NCBI GenBank assembly: GCA_000004985.1
Contig: GG739010.1
Length of the DNA: 11,476 nucleotides
Direction: 5' to 3' (one strand)
Source: Naegleria gruberi
Taxonomy: Eukaryota
In this document: positions 218-10,773 of the stretch, piece by piece
How positions within the stretch are numbered: the stretch's first letter is position 1
How the letters are laid out: the number at the start of each line of letters is the position of its first letter
Notes under the pieces: generated by a model
Database searches by the model: none
Told to the model about the DNA's origin: nothing
Seen by the model: the letters and a program-made list of their open reading frames with translations, nothing else
Program-made: the position numbers and the translations under genes

Positions 218-1236
218 ATGACAACAAGAATCAACATTCTCCCTGACGAATTACAACTCGCTGCAGGTGTCTTGTCTTTACCAAACATTTTCGAAATCAA
301 GTATTCTGCACCAGTTCGTCTCTACAAAGCCAACAATGGTAATCAATGGTCATATGCCAATTCTTATGGAATTTTGACAGTTACATTGGTTGAAAAGCAA
401 TCAGTAGTAATGATTCGGTTGGTAGATTTGAAGAGTAAATCAGTTACTATGGAACAAGAATGTTATGAAGGTTTCGACTATCAAACACTTTCTTCCAATT
501 TTCATGCATTCGAATCTGATGATGGTTTTGTCGGATTGTTATTTGCTGAAAGATTTGATGCTGATCAATTTGCCAAGCAAGTTTGTCAACTCATTCGTTT
601 GAAAGCAACTGGTTCTATCAATGGTTCAACTCCAAGTTTGCCTTCAACTAAACCTTCTGTTAATATGAGAAGTGACAGTTCTGATTCTTCTTCTTCTTCA
701 CCAACTGGTACTGGTTCCAGTACTGCCCCACCTACTCCAGTGAAGAAGACTAATCCTCCTCCATCCACTCCTCCACCAGTTGCTAACAAGCCAACTGCTG
801 TCAATACTTCAATTGCTGCCAGTAGCTCAGTACATACTACCAGCACTACCTCTTCCCATAAGGAACCTGAAAAGAAACACATTCCTAGCAATAGCAGTAG
901 TGGAGGTAGTAGCAGTAGTGGAGGTGGTTTATTCTCCAAGATTTTCGGAACAAAGAATAAGGACCAAATTCCTGACCGGTCACAAATCAAAATTTCTGGA
1001 CCAAAGGTTGACAAGTTTAAACACGTTTCACACATTGGTTTTGATCCAAAGCTTGGCTTTACTGAAATCCCTCCACAGCTAAAAACCATTTTCGAGAAGG
1101 CAGGTATTTCTGAAGCTGAATTGAAAGATAAGAAAACTGCCAAATTTTTAATGAAGACACTTGTCACTGTCACATCAGATGCTCCCCCACCTCCTTCTTT
1201 GGATGTTCCAAGTGGAAGACCACAACCTCCACCAAN
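218..1236 (+). CDS. WASP-family actin nucleation-promoting factor, N-terminal part (WH1/EVH1 domain, basic region, CRIB/GBD, start of polyproline). 3' end lost in assembly gap
   Basis: Translation starts MTTRINILPDE. Residues about 20-125 (NIFEIKYSAPVRLYKANNGNQWSY...FHAFESDDGFVGLLFAERFDADQFAKQV) align by eye with the human WASP WH1 domain (LYLALPPGAEHW...[28 protein letters not shown]). A S/T/P-rich low-complexity linker follows, then a basic stretch (KNKDQIPDRSQIK). A CRIB core ISGPKVDKFKHVSHIGFDPKLGF matches the CRIB consensus I-S-x-P-x-x-F-x-H-x-x-H-V-G and human WASP [21 protein letters not shown]. The following AGISEAELKDKKTAKFL matches WASP AGISEAQLTDAETSKLI. Then DAPPPPSLDVPSGRPQPPP runs into the N gap. 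It is a single long exon. Its frame simply continues into the Ns, so the ORF-track 1712-aa product is an artefact. Confidence 0.88.
893..925 (+). repeat. Short tandem coding repeat (agcagtagtggaggt x2, encoding SSSGG-SSSGG) in the S/T/P-rich linker
   Basis: The direct repeat agcagtagtggaggt occurs at 893-907 and 911-925, separated by agt. It lies in a low-complexity Ser/Gly stretch of the WASP-family CDS. Confidence 0.5.
983..1060 (+). other. CRIB / GTPase-binding motif within the WASP-family CDS
   Basis: Encodes QIKISGPKVDKFKHVSHIGFDPKLGF. The I-S-x-P, F-x-H-x-x-H-V/I-G and D-P positions of the Cdc42/Rac-interactive binding motif are present. Confidence 0.8.
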
Positions 1237-4200
1237 NNNNNNNNNNNNNNNNNNNNNNNNNNNNNNNNNNNNNNNNNNNNNNNNNNNNNNNNNNNNNNNN
1301 NNNNNNNNNNNNNNNNNNNNNNNNNNNNNNNNNNNNNNNNNNNNNNNNNNNNNNNNNNNNNNNNNNNNNNNNNNNNNNNNNNNNNNNNNNNNNNNNNNNN
1401 NNNNNNNNNNNNNNNNNNNNNNNNNNNNNNNNNNNNNNNNNNNNNNNNNNNNNNNNNNNNNNNNNNNNNNNNNNNNNNNNNNNNNNNNNNNNNNNNNNNN
1501 NNNNNNNNNNNNNNNNNNNNNNNNNNNNNNNNNNNNNNNNNNNNNNNNNNNNNNNNNNNNNNNNNNNNNNNNNNNNNNNNNNNNNNNNNNNNNNNNNNNN
1601 NNNNNNNNNNNNNNNNNNNNNNNNNNNNNNNNNNNNNNNNNNNNNNNNNNNNNNNNNNNNNNNNNNNNNNNNNNNNNNNNNNNNNNNNNNNNNNNNNNNN
1701 NNNNNNNNNNNNNNNNNNNNNNNNNNNNNNNNNNNNNNNNNNNNNNNNNNNNNNNNNNNNNNNNNNNNNNNNNNNNNNNNNNNNNNNNNNNNNNNNNNNN
1801 NNNNNNNNNNNNNNNNNNNNNNNNNNNNNNNNNNNNNNNNNNNNNNNNNNNNNNNNNNNNNNNNNNNNNNNNNNNNNNNNNNNNNNNNNNNNNNNNNNNN
1901 NNNNNNNNNNNNNNNNNNNNNNNNNNNNNNNNNNNNNNNNNNNNNNNNNNNNNNNNNNNNNNNNNNNNNNNNNNNNNNNNNNNNNNNNNNNNNNNNNNNN
2001 NNNNNNNNNNNNNNNNNNNNNNNNNNNNNNNNNNNNNNNNNNNNNNNNNNNNNNNNNNNNNNNNNNNNNNNNNNNNNNNNNNNNNNNNNNNNNNNNNNNN
2101 NNNNNNNNNNNNNNNNNNNNNNNNNNNNNNNNNNNNNNNNNNNNNNNNNNNNNNNNNNNNNNNNNNNNNNNNNNNNNNNNNNNNNNNNNNNNNNNNNNNN
2201 NNNNNNNNNNNNNNNNNNNNNNNNNNNNNNNNNNNNNNNNNNNNNNNNNNNNNNNNNNNNNNNNNNNNNNNNNNNNNNNNNNNNNNNNNNNNNNNNNNNN
2301 NNNNNNNNNNNNNNNNNNNNNNNNNNNNNNNNNNNNNNNNNNNNNNNNNNNNNNNNNNNNNNNNNNNNNNNNNNNNNNNNNNNNNNNNNNNNNNNNNNNN
2401 NNNNNNNNNNNNNNNNNNNNNNNNNNNNNNNNNNNNNNNNNNNNNNNNNNNNNNNNNNNNNNNNNNNNNNNNNNNNNNNNNNNNNNNNNNNNNNNNNNNN
2501 NNNNNNNNNNNNNNNNNNNNNNNNNNNNNNNNNNNNNNNNNNNNNNNNNNNNNNNNNNNNNNNNNNNNNNNNNNNNNNNNNNNNNNNNNNNNNNNNNNNN
2601 NNNNNNNNNNNNNNNNNNNNNNNNNNNNNNNNNNNNNNNNNNNNNNNNNNNNNNNNNNNNNNNNNNNNNNNNNNNNNNNNNNNNNNNNNNNNNNNNNNNN
2701 NNNNNNNNNNNNNNNNNNNNNNNNNNNNNNNNNNNNNNNNNNNNNNNNNNNNNNNNNNNNNNNNNNNNNNNNNNNNNNNNNNNNNNNNNNNNNNNNNNNN
2801 NNNNNNNNNNNNNNNNNNNNNNNNNNNNNNNNNNNNNNNNNNNNNNNNNNNNNNNNNNNNNNNNNNNNNNNNNNNNNNNNNNNNNNNNNNNNNNNNNNNN
2901 NNNNNNNNNNNNNNNNNNNNNNNNNNNNNNNNNNNNNNNNNNNNNNNNNNNNNNNNNNNNNNNNNNNNNNNNNNNNNNNNNNNNNNNNNNNNNNNNNNNN
3001 NNNNNNNNNNNNNNNNNNNNNNNNNNNNNNNNNNNNNNNNNNNNNNNNNNNNNNNNNNNNNNNNNNNNNNNNNNNNNNNNNNNNNNNNNNNNNNNNNNNN
3101 NNNNNNNNNNNNNNNNNNNNNNNNNNNNNNNNNNNNNNNNNNNNNNNNNNNNNNNNNNNNNNNNNNNNNNNNNNNNNNNNNNNNNNNNNNNNNNNNNNNN
3201 NNNNNNNNNNNNNNNNNNNNNNNNNNNNNNNNNNNNNNNNNNNNNNNNNNNNNNNNNNNNNNNNNNNNNNNNNNNNNNNNNNNNNNNNNNNNNNNNNNNN
3301 NNNNNNNNNNNNNNNNNNNNNNNNNNNNNNNNNNNNNNNNNNNNNNNNNNNNNNNNNNNNNNNNNNNNNNNNNNNNNNNNNNNNNNNNNNNNNNNNNNNN
3401 NNNNNNNNNNNNNNNNNNNNNNNNNNNNNNNNNNNNNNNNNNNNNNNNNNNNNNNNNNNNNNNNNNNNNNNNNNNNNNNNNNNNNNNNNNNNNNNNNNNN
3501 NNNNNNNNNNNNNNNNNNNNNNNNNNNNNNNNNNNNNNNNNNNNNNNNNNNNNNNNNNNNNNNNNNNNNNNNNNNNNNNNNNNNNNNNNNNNNNNNNNNN
3601 NNNNNNNNNNNNNNNNNNNNNNNNNNNNNNNNNNNNNNNNNNNNNNNNNNNNNNNNNNNNNNNNNNNNNNNNNNNNNNNNNNNNNNNNNNNNNNNNNNNN
3701 NNNNNNNNNNNNNNNNNNNNNNNNNNNNNNNNNNNNNNNNNNNNNNNNNNNNNNNNNNNNNNNNNNNNNNNNNNNNNNNNNNNNNNNNNNNNNNNNNNNN
3801 NNNNNNNNNNNNNNNNNNNNNNNNNNNNNNNNNNNNNNNNNNNNNNNNNNNNNNNNNNNNNNNNNNNNNNNNNNNNNNNNNNNNNNNNNNNNNNNNNNNN
3901 NNNNNNNNNNNNNNNNNNNNNNNNNNNNNNNNNNNNNNNNNNNNNNNNNNNNNNNNNNNNNNNNNNNNNNNNNNNNNNNNNNNNNNNNNNNNNNNNNNNN
4001 NNNNNNNNNNNNNNNNNNNNNNNNNNNNNNNNNNNNNNNNNNNNNNNNNNNNNNNNNNNNNNNNNNNNNNNNNNNNNNNNNNNNNNNNNNNNNNNNNNNN
4101 NNNNNNNNNNNNNNNNNNNNNNNNNNNNNNNNNNNNNNNNNNNNNNNNNNNNNNNNNNNNNNNNNNNNNNNNNNNNNNNNNNNNNNNNNNNNNNNNNNNN

Positions 4201-5319
4201 NNNNNNNNNNNNNNNNNNNNNNNNNNNNNNNNNNNNNNNNNNNNNNNNNNNNNNNNNNNNNNNNNNNNNNNNNNNNNNNNNNNNNNNNNNNNNNNNNNNN
4301 NNNNNNNNNNNNNNNNNNNNNNNNNNNNNNNNNNNNNNNNNNNNNNNNNNNNNNNNNNNNNNNNNNNNNNNNNNNNNNNNNNNNNNNNNNNNNNNNNNNN
4401 NNNNNNNNNNNNNNNNNNNNNNNNNNNNNNNNNNNNNNNNNNNNNNNNNNNNNNNNNNNNNNNNNNNNNNNNNNNNNNNNNNNNNNNNNNNNNNNNNNNN
4501 NNNNNNNNNNNNNNNNNNNNNNNNNNNNNNNNNNNNNNNNNNNNNNNNNNNNNNNNNNNNNNNNNNNNNNNNNNNNNNNNNNNNNNNNNNNNNNNNNNNN
4601 NNNNNNNNNNNNNNNNNNNNNNNNNNNNNNNNNNNNNNNNNNNNNNNNNNNNNNNNNNNNNNNNNNNNNNNNNNNNNNNNNNNNNNNNNNNNNNNNNNNN
4701 NNNNNNNNNNNNNNNNNNNNNNNNNNNNNNNNNNNNNNNNNNNNNNNNNNNNNNNNNNNNNNNNNNNNNNNNNNNNNNNNNNNNNNNNNNNNNNNNNNNN
4801 NNNNNNNNNNNNNNNNNNNNNNNNNNNNNNNNNNNNNNNNNNNNNNNNNNNNNNNNNNNNNNNNNNNNNNNNNNNNNNNNNNNNNNNNNNNNNNNNNNNN
4901 NNNNNNNNNNNNNNNNNNNNNNNNNNNNNNNNNNNNNNNNNNNNNNNNNNNNNNNNNNNNNNNNNNNNNNNNNNNNNNNNNNNNNNNNNNNNNNNNNNNN
5001 NNNNNNNNNNNNNNNNNNNNNNNNNNNNNNNNNNNNNNNNNNNNNNNNNNNNNNNNNNNNNNNNNNNNNNNNNNNNNNNNNNNNNNNNNNNNNNNNNNNN
5101 NNNNNNNNNNNNNNNNNNNNNNNNNNNNNNNNNNNNNNNNNNNNNNNNNNNNNNNNNNNNNNNNNNNNNNNNNNNNNNNNNNNNNNNNNNNNNNNNNNNN
5201 NNNNNNNNNNNNNNNNNNNNNNNNNNNNNNNNNNNNNNNNNNNNNNNNNNNNNNNNNNNNNNNNNNNNNNNNNNNNNNNNNNNNNNNNNNNNNNNNNNNN
5301 NNNNNNNNNNNNNNNNNNN
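1237..5319. other. Assembly gap (4083 N)
   Basis: Uninterrupted run of n. It must hide the WASP C-terminus (rest of the polyproline region, WH2/V, central and acidic regions) and the copine N-terminus (tandem C2 domains), plus the intergenic spacer between them. Confidence 0.99.
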
Positions 5320-6183
5320 GTTGCCAGGAAGGAAAACCGCCAAGATCAATTTTTAGACCACATTATGGGAGGATGTAACATTTCAGTATCAGTTGGCATT
5401 GATTTTACTGCATCAAACGGTGGTTTCACCAGTAGTAGCTCCCTCCATTATTTAAGTTCCAAGAAGAATCACTATCAACAAGCCCTTGCACAAGTTTTGC
5501 AAATTTTGGAACCTTATGATTCTGACAAGATATATGGTGGTAAGTATTTGACTTTTAACACTTTCACTAATTATTCGAAAGCATATGGATATGGTGCAAG
5601 GATAGATAAGGAATTAAAAATGAATCCAATGTTTAATCTGTCACTCTCAGATAAGGAGGAACTTTGTGTAGGAGAAATACTTGAAGCATATGAGAAGGCA
5701 GTTCCAAGACTATCATTTGGAGATATGGGAAGTGCCACTAATCCAAAAACTGGAAAGCCTTATCGAGGAGATGACTTTTATAGAGTTATTGAACATGTCG
5801 TTGAGAGAACTCCTCCTGTTACTCAACAACAACAATTCTACAATATTCTATTGTTAATTATTGATGGTGATGCATTTGACATGCAAGGCACAATCGATTC
5901 AATTATAGAGGCCAATGACAAACCTATCTCAATTGTAATTGTTGGTATTGGTGGTAGAAGTTTCCCAAGTTGTAGAAAATTCGATGCTGATGATGAACCA
6001 CTCATTCACAGTAATGGAACTAAAATGACAAGAGACATTGTTCAATTTGTGAGCTTTTCTGAATGTTCTGATTTAACACAATTAGCTTCTGAAGTGCTAG
6101 CTGAAATACCCAAACAAATGGTTACGTATTTTGAATCAAAAGAAATTATTCCTAATCCACGACCTCAAAGTGCTTTCTACTAA
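5320..6183 (+). CDS. Copine, C-terminal vWA-like 'A domain' (5'-partial, emerges from the gap). Contains a 42-nt in-frame intron at 5540-5581
   Basis: Frame 1 is open from the gap edge: ...RKENRQDQFLDHIMGGCNISVSVGIDFTASNGGF...SLHYLS... Compare the copine consensus FLDY(I/V)MGGCQINFTVG(I/V)DFT(A/G)SNG and SLHYI. Downstream LLLIIDGDAFDMQGT, ISIVIVGIGG, DIVQFVSF and the C-terminal LASEVLAEIPKQMVTYF track the copine family (human: FVLLIITDGVITD, MSIIIVGVGG, DIVQFVPF, LAQCVLAEIPQQVVGYF). TAA stop at 6181-6183. The ORF track starts it at M5365 only because it demands a start codon. Confidence 0.9.
   Translation, partial: VARKENRQDQFLDHIMGGCNISVSVGIDFTASNGGFTSSSSLHYLSSKKNHYQQALAQVLQILEPYDSDKIYGGKYLTFNTFTNYSKAYGYGARIDKELKMNPMFNLSLSDKEELCVGEILEAYEKAVPRLSFGDMGSATNPKTGKPYRGDDFYRVIEHVVERTPPVTQQQQFYNILLLIIDGDAFDMQGTIDSIIEANDKPISIVIVGIGGRSFPSCRKFDADDEPLIHSNGTKMTRDIVQFVSFSECSDLTQLASEVLAEIPKQMVTYFESKEIIPNPRPQSAFY
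5540..5581 (+). other. Spliceosomal intron (42 nt, phase 1, in-frame read-through) inside the copine CDS
   Basis: GTAAGT donor at 5540-5545, a CACTAAT branch-like motif 13 nt upstream of the acceptor, and AAAG acceptor at 5578-5581. Removing it converts the read-through DKIYGGKYLTFNTFTNYSKAYGYGARI into DKIYGAYGYGARI. That restores the invariant copine motif D-K-[MI]-[FY]-[PG]-A-[FY]-G-[FY]-G-A-[QR]-I (human DKMFPAFGFGAQI). Length 42 is a multiple of 3 with no in-frame stop, so six-frame translation hides it. Confidence 0.8.
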
Positions 6184-6284
6184 TGTTTACCAGGATTAAT
6201 TGGCTAAATGTGTGCCACCTGAATTGATAAAGTAGTTGTTAGGAAAAAAATTTCACTTCCATTTTTTCCAAACCATGAATCCTT

Positions 6285-6290
6285 AATAAA
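6285..6290 (+). promoter_or_regulatory. Candidate poly(A) signal (AATAAA) for the copine transcript
   Basis: AATAAA lies about 100 nt downstream of the copine TAA and is followed by an A-run. Positional evidence only. Confidence 0.25.
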
Positions 6291-6478
6291 AAAAATGACT
6301 CCACCCTTAGATGCAAACAACATGGAAAAAATGATAACAGCAGAACATACCGTAGTGGCAAAGTACTTTAAATTGGTTTGCAATAACCTTGAGCCCCCGT
6401 TAAACGATTTTAAACAAGTTAGAAATAATAGTGGACAATTACTTTCGAATAGAACCTAATGTATGCTGTTTTTGGCCA

Positions 6479-6817
6479 ATGCTCATGGTAGTAATTTGGA
6501 AAAATTCATTCATATACCAAGGTAAAACAAAACAACATCAGGATAATGGTATCCTCTCTTACGAAATTGCTTCAAAAAATTCACTATTCGAACTCACCAA
6601 ACATATATTCAATAATGTTTGCAATCAACAAGCCAAACCAACACACCAAGAATACTTTGCTACAACCATTATCTTACGCCAAGTCTTCCAACACAAACAA
6701 AACCCCAAAATATCTCTTCATATTGGTAATCTTAATCTAGGCCATCACAAATTTTATTTATTTGGGAAATTAATGGTAATAGATGGAACAAAAGAAGAAA
6801 TTGGCCAACTTTTCTAA
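6479..6817 (+). CDS. Hypothetical small ORF (113 aa from first ATG) in the copine / coiled-coil convergent spacer. Possibly non-coding
   Basis: This is the only long ORF in the 1.1-kb spacer, and no long ORF exists on the minus strand there. The track start at 6431 is a GTG. The first ATG is 6479 (MLMVVIWKNSFIYQGK...). It is Q/N/K/H-rich with no recognisable domain, and its composition is hard to tell from AT-rich non-coding DNA. Confidence 0.2.
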   Translation: MLMVVIWKNSFIYQGKTKQHQDNGILSYEIASKNSLFELTKHIFNNVCNQQAKPTHQEYFATTIILRQVFQHKQNPKISLHIGNLNLGHHKFYLFGKLMVIDGTKEEIGQLF

Positions 6818-7291
6818 AAGTTAAATCCCTCTGATTCTATTTTACTGAATAATGCAAACACACCTGTAATGCAAAAACTTCTCCATAATGAGATGAGTGC
6901 TTTGAATTATTAGAGAAAGTTAAAGACCAATATTGTGTCAATGCTACATACTCACGATTCATTTCTGACAAACTTTTTTTAGTGGATGGTGTGAATATTG
7001 ACAAAGAACTGATCAATCATTTCGATATGTTGTGCAAACAAGAAGAAGATTAATAATAATAAAGGAATAAATCATCACCCAGTTCTCCTCTCCTTACTGC
7101 CTCTCAACAACACCATCCAATGAGGAATTCCATTCTTGAAGATTCCGAAATTAAGAAGGTAATAAATTAGAATTCTACCAAAGAGCCAATTTCTTTGAAA
7201 ATGGTGCATCTTCAGTAGCACTTCCCCAATATTAACATAGAAAATAGATGTGACACAATTCTTAAAGTGCTAATTTTATAGATCCATGTTT

Positions 7292-8257: not shown

Positions 8258-8270
8258 TCANNNNNNNNNN

Positions 8271-8640
8271 NNNNNNNNNNNNNNNNNNNNNNNNNNNNNN
8301 NNNNNNNNNNNNNNNNNNNNNNNNNNNNNNNNNNNNNNNNNNNNNNNNNNNNNNNNNNNNNNNNNNNNNNNNNNNNNNNNNNNNNNNNNNNNNNNNNNNN
8401 NNNNNNNNNNNNNNNNNNNNNNNNNNNNNNNNNNNNNNNNNNNNNNNNNNNNNNNNNNNNNNNNNNNNNNNNNNNNNNNNNNNNNNNNNNNNNNNNNNNN
8501 NNNNNNNNNNNNNNNNNNNNNNNNNNNNNNNNNNNNNNNNNNNNNNNNNNNNNNNNNNNNNNNNNNNNNNNNNNNNNNNNNNNNNNNNNNNNNNNNNNNN
8601 NNNNNNNNNNNNNNNNNNNNNNNNNNNNNNNNNNNNNNNN
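8271..8640. other. Assembly gap (370 N)
   Basis: Run of n. The ORF-track 8181..8660 ORF is translated Ns. Confidence 0.99.
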
Positions 8641-8758: not shown

Positions 8759-9544
8759 ATGTTTTCAGAATCAACAGCCTCTTGCTACTTTGATGAGCCT
8801 GTTATATTTGAGACTCTTTCTACTCGGCGTGAGGTCTTACTAACAGACAAACACTCCGATTTTACAAAATCCAAAACACCTTTTAGATACGAAACTACAA
8901 TAGAATTCTCGAAAATGTATCAGTATCTGTTTTGGTTAAAAGTTATCTGGTGCATGATGATGGAAAATCTAGTGTTCCACTAACAGGATCTGGATTGTTG
9001 CTAACTCCAATACGTGAAGGAAGCAATTCAACGATTTTTATTGCAACTGCCCTACACTCCATTCTGCAATTTAGACACCCTCTAGTTGGATTAGAGGTAC
9101 ATTTTTGTAAGCACTCTTCATTGCCCATTTGTATTTTAAATGGTAAAGTTGTTAGTCATGGAAAACCCTTATCTCTGAAACTTTTTCCTAATGAAGATTG
9201 GGCAATAGTAGAACTCGATAAAACAAGTGGTGAAGTGTTTGATTTATTATTCAATAGTAATCAGCTTCCAGCAATCCCTTCCCTGTTGGTGATTCAACGA
9301 CCATCAAAAGTAGAGAAAACAATATTGAGTGATAGATATTCTATGGCACTTTTTTCCATTCTTCTCCCAACCTCTTAACAACAAGGAGATATGTATGGGT
9401 ATGGAACAATGCTTTCCGAGCAAGCACTTTTTCATACCTTATGCGATTGTTTTTGGAGCTATGGCTTTTAGTGTTGAAATTCCTTTCTTTGAGGAATGGT
9501 TGCTTTTAAAAGACATTGAGTTGATATACCAAGAAAAGCATTAA
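8759..9544 (+). CDS. Hypothetical protein, composite gene model over three ORF-track ORFs (8759-8983, 8932-9378, 9329-9544), joined by short introns or by one intron plus an assembly frameshift
   Basis: Three consecutive same-strand ORFs overlap in staggered frames (codon phases 2, 1, 2). The track starts of ORF2 and ORF3 are TTG and GTG, not ATG. The first real ATG in ORF3 leaves only a 50-aa product, so splicing is the likelier explanation. Junction 2: a GTAGAG donor at 9310 and an AG acceptor at 9384-9385 preceded by CTTAAC give a 76-nt intron (length 3n+1) that joins phase 1 to phase 2 exactly (...VIQRPSK|EICMGMEQCFPSKHFF...). Junction 1 needs an intron of length 3n+2. The candidates are GTATCA 8917 or GTATCT 8923 to AG 8972 (56 or 50 nt), or GTGAGG 8829 to CACTAACAG 8986 (158 nt). 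A 1-nt assembly error is the alternative. The protein has no domain I can name (…TGSGLLLTPIREGSNSTIFIATALHSILQFRHPLVGLEVHFCKHSSLPICILNGKVVSHGKPLSLKLFPNEDWAIVELDKTSGEVFDLLF…). Confidence 0.45.
9310..9385 (+). other. Candidate 76-nt intron joining exon 2 and exon 3 of the 8759-9544 gene
   Basis: GTAGAG donor sits at a phase-0 codon boundary. AG acceptor lies at 9384-9385 with cctCTTAACaacAAG upstream. Length 3n+1 converts phase 1 to phase 2 as required. The downstream frame opens only at 9329 (TGA at 9326-9328), so the acceptor must be at or after 9329. Confidence 0.4.
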
Positions 9545-9740: not shown

Positions 9741-10773
9741 TTAAAACTTATTAAATGCCAATCTTGGCTCTTCCAATAAAATTTCAGAATCAATATTTTG
9801 TCTTGGTGGTGTCATTGCCATAACGGTGTGTCTTCTTGTTGTTGGTTTTGTGGCCTCTTTTGGTTTTCCAATAAAATCATCATATACTTCATCACTCTTT
9901 TCTTCGTCATCAGTTTCAGATTGATTTGTGTAAAGATGAGCATGATGATCGAAGGCATCATGATAATGGTTTTGATTTTGATCATGCCCTGGATGAGCAT
10001 TCTTTGGAATATGCTGAGCTTTAGCCAAATATAGAGAAACACTGTGTCCTGCATGTAGGTAATGCGTTGACTTATCAAAGATGATGTACAAGTGAACAAA
10101 AACTTCCAAAATTTCCACTGCCAACTCTTCCTCAAGTGTAACTGTTTTGTAAGCAAATTCTCTGGNNNNNNNNNNNNNNNNNNNNNNNNNNNNNNNNNNN
10201 NNNNNNNNNNNNNNNAAAACAGATGATTCAATCCAGTTTACCCAAATTGAAAGAGGTTTCTTCCTGGAAATTGCAATCAATTCTCTGACATATCTGAAAG
10301 TGAAAAGTAAAATTAAAATAGCCATGTATAGATATGAAAGAACTTTGAATGCCATTTGCATATCCTTCTCTGTTTGATTATTTGTGTTTGAAGCTTTGCC
10401 CAATACGTCATTTGCTTGAACGTATGTAATAGTAGCAAACTTTTGTGTGATTTAGTTTAATTTATCCTTTCCAACAACCTACCTTTAGAACTGAATAAAT
10501 ATACATCTTTAATCTTCTATTTCCGATCGTCCAACTAGAAAATTTCTTCCATCTCCTTGCTACTGTATCAGTCCACGACCCATTATTATTTGATCCACCT
10601 CCATTATTATTATTAGGTTTAGTATTAAAATCTTTAATTGCCGAAGCATCAAAATATGGAGTAGAATCTGATAAACTATCTTCATTGTTGGTTTTTGATG
10701 TTGTTGGTGTCAACTTTCTGCCATACGCCTCTGAAACAATGAGTGGCTTTGATCCAGAACGATGTATCGACAT
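9741..10773 (-). CDS. Two-exon gene: S/N-rich N-terminal region, single TM helix, C-terminal domain with a His-rich acidic tail (exon 1 10773-10483, intron 10482-10440, exon 2 10439-9741; interrupted by a 50-N gap)
   Basis: ORF-track ORFs 10462-10773 (ATG start, MSIHRSGSKPLIV...) and 9741-10403 (TTG 'start') lie head-to-tail on the minus strand. Exon 1 ends ...TCA GTT CTA AAG, immediately followed by GTAGGT. A 43-nt intron follows (gtaggttgttggaaaggataaattaaACTAAATcacacaaaag), with an ACTAAAT branch-like motif 13 nt before the AG. Its length is 3n+1, exactly the shift needed from codon phase 0 to phase 2. Exon 2 opens FATITYVQANDVLGKASNTNNQTEKDMQMAFKVLSYLYMAILILLFTFRYVRE (one hydrophobic helix). 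It continues ...EFAYKTVTLEEELAVEILEVFVHLYIIFDKSTHYLHAGHSV...HPGHDQNQNHYHDAFDHHAHLY...SETDDEEKSDEVYDDF... and ends at a TAA. Confidence 0.5.
10166..10215. other. Assembly gap (50 N) inside the minus-strand CDS
   Basis: Run of n. About 17 codons are lost. The frame is conserved across it only if the true gap length is 3n+2, which is unknown. Confidence 0.99.
10440..10482 (-). other. Candidate 43-nt intron (GTAGGT...ACTAAAT...AG) joining ORF-track ORFs 10462-10773 and 9741-10403
   Basis: See the CDS entry above. Canonical donor, branch-like motif and acceptor are all present. Phase arithmetic is exact. Its size class matches the verified copine intron (42 nt). Confidence 0.45.

Follow-up and report, generated by a model that had tools for sequence, protein, structure and literature searches.

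The window, by which we mean the whole 11,476-nt stretch of DNA analysed here, is AT-rich eukaryotic DNA (about 32–38% GC in its non-N parts) and contains runs of N at 1236–5319 (4,084 bases), 8261–8640 and 10166–10215. A WASP-like gene occupies 218–1235 on the plus strand and encodes a WH1 domain (1.7e-15) and a P21-Rho-binding/CRIB domain (PBD, 1.7e-11) with a Ser/Pro-rich linker between them. This gene lies upstream of a copine gene and runs into the N run 1236–5319, which removes its 3′ part. A word-indexed search of 5.8 billion proteins returned no homologue of its WH1 region, which suggests a poorly sampled lineage. Rfam and tRNA scans found no RNA genes in the window.

Position 5320 is the first base past the large N run, and from there to 6183 a plus-strand frame is open throughout. 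The encoded product is the C-terminal vWA-like domain of a copine (Pfam Copine, PF07002); the 5′ part of the gene, with its C2 domains, falls in the N run, so that the gene is partial in the window and represented by its vWA/Copine-domain part only. The upstream exon (5320–5539, plus strand), delimited by its translation and its PF07002 match, covers the start of the vWA-like/Copine domain, carries the MIDAS-like DxTxS motif as DFTAS and ends in a G that is the first base of a codon. The downstream exon (5582–6183, plus strand), 65–76% identical at the amino acid level to its counterparts in the four closest relatives described below, opens with CA, which completes an Ala codon (G/CA), continues with YGYGAR... 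and ends in the stop TAA at 6181–6183. The copine ORF and other ORFs end in TAA, as the standard code requires, and on this ground a ciliate-type code was rejected.

Joined to each other, the two exons encode a protein that matches PF07002 over profile positions 1–216 of 218 (175.5 bits against a gathering cut-off of 27, 1.4e-51) and Arabidopsis BON1 (6kxk) at 9.4e-33. It has in common with the copine/BONZAI family the DxTxS metal-site motif and the DK..P.xGFGA segment. Among the matches listed, the closest copine in the protein database is 78% identical; identity is at most 50% to any listed match except the contig fragments P0001–P0004, and at most 45% to any listed match with a named source, the best of these being about 40–45% identical and coming from scattered taxa. 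One copine-domain protein (P0007, 45% identical to the query) has an "Oligoflexales bacterium" MAG as its NCBI source, and comes either from a eukaryotic contig binned in error or from a copine-like gene of a bacterium.

Between the two exons lie 42 nt (5540–5581, GTAAGTATTTGACTTTTAACACTTTCACTAATTATTCGAAAG) that the sequence-only reading had proposed to be an intron hidden in the copine ORF, with GTAAGT...AG borders and a CACTAAT branch-like motif. Its account of a stop-free, in-frame segment adding 14 residues was accurate to the base: the segment follows the opening base of a codon (phase 1), lies in the frame of the copine ORF with zero in-frame stops and, when read through, adds the 14 residues GKYLTFNTFTNYSK, while its excision gives ...YDSDKIYG-AYGYGARI.... 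The signals could be read directly and were confirmed as well. A GTAAGT at 5540–5545 would serve as the 5′ splice site and the AG at 5580–5581 as the 3′ splice site; elsewhere in the segment, AG occurs only inside GTAAGT. The CACTAAT at 5565–5571 is branch-point-like by its match to the consensus, its CTAAT core (5567–5571) starting 13 nt ahead of the AG and the putative branch A (5570) standing 10 nt before it. The GC content of the segment is 0.26, compared with 0.39 and 0.35 in the flanking exons.

Do copines carry residues at this position? The Pfam comparison that had been suggested as a check favoured excision, the PF07002 score rising by 18 bits from 157.5 for the read-through translation when 5540–5581 was removed. 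A protein database search with the spliced protein yielded 656 significant matches, the best 120 of which were aligned to the read-through translation; 115 of these span the site and form the basis of the spacing count. The interval from the D of DK to the first G of GxGA is exactly 6 residues in all 115 spanning homologues, and measures 20 residues in the read-through form of the window protein and 6 in the spliced form. None of the 115 (from the best 120 of 656 matches) had extra residues at the junction, and the sequence of the BON1 crystal structure (6kxk) aligned over it (YDSDKRFPAWGFGAR) without insertion. These counts bear out the warning that an annotation taken from the ORF track would carry a 14-residue false insertion. 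The motif restored by excision had been called strictly conserved, which holds for its spacing but is somewhat overstated for its residues: spacing is invariant, whereas residue identity in the DK..GxGA segment varies (P/G/A/S, then A/V/L/S and so on). Among the 6,962 bases of the window that are not N, the plus strand has a single GTAAGT, and this lone copy sits exactly where the 14 residues in excess of the 115 homologues begin. Because the signal falls exactly at the border of the homology gap, the coincidence of the two is far beyond chance.

The closest relatives of the gene are four metagenome contigs (L001–L004) that carry the four best protein matches (P0001–P0004), with 62–76% amino acid identity to the spliced window protein over the aligned exon segments (tblastn). 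P0001–P0004 align to no more than the C-terminal two thirds of the query, as if prokaryote-style gene calls had been interrupted just upstream, and tblastn matches to L001, L003 and L004 stop at query residue 72–73, the end of the upstream exon. In all four contigs a GT...AG segment is present in the same codon and the same phase, after the first base of the codon preceding YG(Y/F)GA: 1734–1777 in L001 (44 nt, GTAAGT...ATAG, spliced peptide DKMYP-AYGYGA), 139–180 in L002 (42 nt, GTAGGT...AAAG, DKMYA-AYGYGA), 142–196 in L003 (55 nt, GTAAGT...TTAG, DKMYG-SYGYGA) and 212–248 in L004 (37 nt, GTGAGT...ACAG, DKMYP-AFGYGA). Every one of these segments contains in-frame stops and three of the four also shift the frame, and gene callers split the ORF there; the conserved downstream sequence is thus expressible only if the segment is spliced out. 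The orthologue comparison, which might have uncovered a genuine insertion of about 14 residues in close relatives, therefore gave the opposite, stop-bearing introns of 37–55 nt in the four closest.

A five-way DNA alignment of the window and these contigs shows exons conserved on both sides of a middle that is variable in length and unalignable, where hardly any column is invariant apart from the GT, the G/T of the donor and the AG. Averaged over pairs, DNA identity in the exon flanks comes to 0.70 and 0.67, and within the intron it falls to 0.30. TAAY-type motifs stand about 9–14 nt (by eye) before the AG in four of five related introns, namely TTCTAAT in the first L001 intron, AATTAAC in L002, TGTAAC in L004 and ACTAAAT in a candidate intron elsewhere in the window (10440–10482). 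Only the window intron among the five homologous ones is both a multiple of three in length (3n) and stop-free. The L002 segment is also 42 nt long and has its first 12 bases in common with the window intron (GTARGTATTTGA), yet contains two in-frame stops; P0002, its protein, is 71% identical to the query in the protein search. L001 holds a complete copine gene (about 460–2367), with two C2-matching ORFs encoded upstream of the Copine domain, and the prokaryote-style calls of this contig make of it three "genes", split at two introns. No synteny outside the copine gene was found between the window and L001–L004.

How widely is the intron distributed? Scanning metagenome contigs with the single protein as query gave no matches; with an alignment profile, the scan gave 33 more distant copine loci (31–54% best-segment identity) and no added close relatives. 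At 21 of the distant loci (L005–L025) the match is single and unbroken, and those that extend to the site all continue across residues 73/74 without a break; the matches of L026–L036 are segmented (tblastn), with breaks after about residue 44, 81 or 203–208 and not at the intron site. No distant copine match breaks at the site, which argues that the intron is specific to a small clade, and by this comparison it appears to be confined to the window and L001–L004. As a caveat on its absence from the distant contigs, part of them may be transcript-derived.

What, then, is the 42-nt segment? Its signals, the Pfam gain, the spacing and the introns of the four relatives all support the reading first proposed, and 5540–5581 is very probably a constitutive spliceosomal intron (U2-type, GT-AG, 42 nt, phase 1) in the part of the copine gene that encodes the vWA-like domain. 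The pre-mRNA would be cut after G5539 and rejoined to C5582, producing a predicted junction 5539/5582 that reads ...ATATATGGTG/CATATGGATATGG..., also given as ...GACAAGATATATGGTG/CATATGGATATGGTGCA.... The joining would form the split Ala codon and a peptide with the spacing of all copines. As the 42 nt are a multiple of three without an in-frame stop, ORF finders would read through them and add the spurious residues, and the intron position would be common to a small, AT-rich eukaryotic clade whose introns are very short. Both the actual splicing of the segment and its efficiency are what we infer from these sequence comparisons; the predicted diagnostic peptides are IYGAYGYGAR if the intron is spliced and ...YLTFNTFTNYSK if it is retained. 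The closest known system is the short U2-type introns of intron-compact eukaryotes (35–60 nt class, with a GTAAGT donor and a CTAAY-type branch site near the AG). The window intron shares with them the GTAAGT, the AG, a CTAAT about 10 nt upstream, a base composition AT-richer than that of the exons, an unconserved interior and a position common to relatives, and differs in nothing essential; like the introns of its relatives, it is without an obvious polypyrimidine tract (3′ end ...TTATTCGAAAG).

A meaningful fraction of transcripts could instead retain the segment, escape nonsense-mediated decay (NMD) and encode another form of the copine, its vWA domain enlarged by a loop of 14 residues. An unspliced message would indeed encode a full-length protein, the 42 nt being in frame and stop-free. 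Introns that are 3n and stop-free are the class whose retention NMD misses in short-intron genomes; they are under-represented in several such genomes, and their retention cannot trigger NMD (PMC5014332, which also cites Paramecium work on such introns). The window intron is like this class in that its retention would give a full-length protein; the window offers a single instance, in a standard-code organism. Structure does not stand in the way either. We modelled the read-through protein with AlphaFold2 from an alignment of 73 homologues (mean pLDDT 89.5, pTM 0.88), and the insert (residues 74–87) was placed as coil between helix 51–66 and strand 86–91, as an alpha1-beta2 surface loop. The only stretch of at least three residues below pLDDT 50 (71–82) takes in the insert's first nine residues, and this low-confidence coil fits a non-native insertion. 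The remaining fold is intact and undisturbed in the model, so structure does not forbid the read-through product; judging from this model, the copine fold would probably tolerate the 14 residues.

Against such an isoform, a stop-free 3n state is expected by chance. We simulated phase-1 introns of 42 nt, drawing bases at the frequencies pooled from the interiors of the five introns (A 0.35, T 0.43), and found 27% of them to be stop-free; since roughly one length in three is 3n, about 9% of introns like these would be invisible to ORF maps by chance alone. The hidden state of the window intron is not special. Moreover, the stops in all four homologous introns, with frame shifts in three, mean that coding capacity is not conserved, interior identity is at the random level and the donor is a perfect GTAAGT, with no sign of selection for the peptide. 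We regard an isoform retained in a meaningful fraction of transcripts as very unlikely; occasional retention may occur. The related idea, that the 3n, stop-free state is maintained on purpose so that regulated retention yields an isoform whose vWA domain bears the GKYLTFNTFTNYSK loop between helix alpha1 and strand beta2, seems to us similarly unlikely; this one intron (n=1) provides no evidence of selection for or against the stop-free 3n state.

If the 42 nt were instead true coding sequence, never spliced, the window copine would carry a lineage-specific 14-residue insertion in its vWA domain. The ORF is uninterrupted and the AlphaFold2 model tolerates a loop at this site, but such an insertion would have to possess exact GTAAGT/AG borders and a drop in GC, would lower the Pfam score by 18 bits and would be without parallel in the 115 homologues; the closest relatives have unreadable introns precisely there, and pLDDT stays below 50 over most of the insert. 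We attach next to no probability to it. An intron with other borders, for instance with its donor at the GT of 5537–5538, is just as improbable: that GT is present, the 45-nt excision is also 3n and the product (...DKIY-AYGYGA) still scores 170.0 bits, but as a donor GTGGTA is poor beside GTAAGT, the score is 5.5 bits below that with donor 5540, the D-to-G interval becomes 5 instead of the invariant 6 residues, and in all four relatives the intron splits the same codon behind its opening base.

The 42-nt intron had also been put forward as a gauge of intron size and signals for the organism, and other short introns agree with it. In L001 a second intron interrupts the C2B domain at 1133–1170 (38 nt, GTAAGT...TTCTAAT...GAAG), its removal restoring GKSDP/FFILEK. 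On the minus strand of the window, a 43-nt candidate at 10440–10482 (GTAGGTTGTTGGAAAGGATAAATTAAACTAAATCACACAAAAG, GTAGGT...ACTAAAT...AAAG, with the ACTAAAT about 10 nt ahead of the AG) joins ORFs 10483–10773 and 9741–10439 exactly in frame, in phase 0. This is likely a second short intron of the same style; the joined protein had no Pfam match. Also on the minus strand, a 56-nt GTGAGT...CTCTAAT...TTCAAAG segment at 6900–6955 lies inside ORF 6837–7016, which reads through it, and may be another short intron, in a gene within 6200–7250. Three overlapping plus-strand ORFs in alternating frames (8759–8983, 8932–9378 and 9329–9544) look like one split gene, and no Pfam match was found in 8759–9544. 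A 26-nt GTATCA...AAAAG segment (8917–8942) would join the first two of these ORFs, and is shorter than any verified intron here; 9329–9385 was also considered as a possible intron.

With the four related contigs, the window thus supplies a set of intron signals for gene modelling in the rest of its sequence: 37–55 nt, a GTRAGT donor and a TAAY motif about 10 nt before the AG, without a pyrimidine tract. The copine intron itself is an ordinary intron of low biological novelty. That it belongs to the NMD-invisible class of 3n, stop-free introns, whereas its four homologues are NMD-visible, is only mildly interesting. Its significance is as a caveat to annotators: in short-intron eukaryotes, translations of in-frame introns pass unnoticed into gene models that derive from ORF maps or prokaryote-style callers, and here a naive translation would burden the copine's vWA domain with 14 spurious residues.
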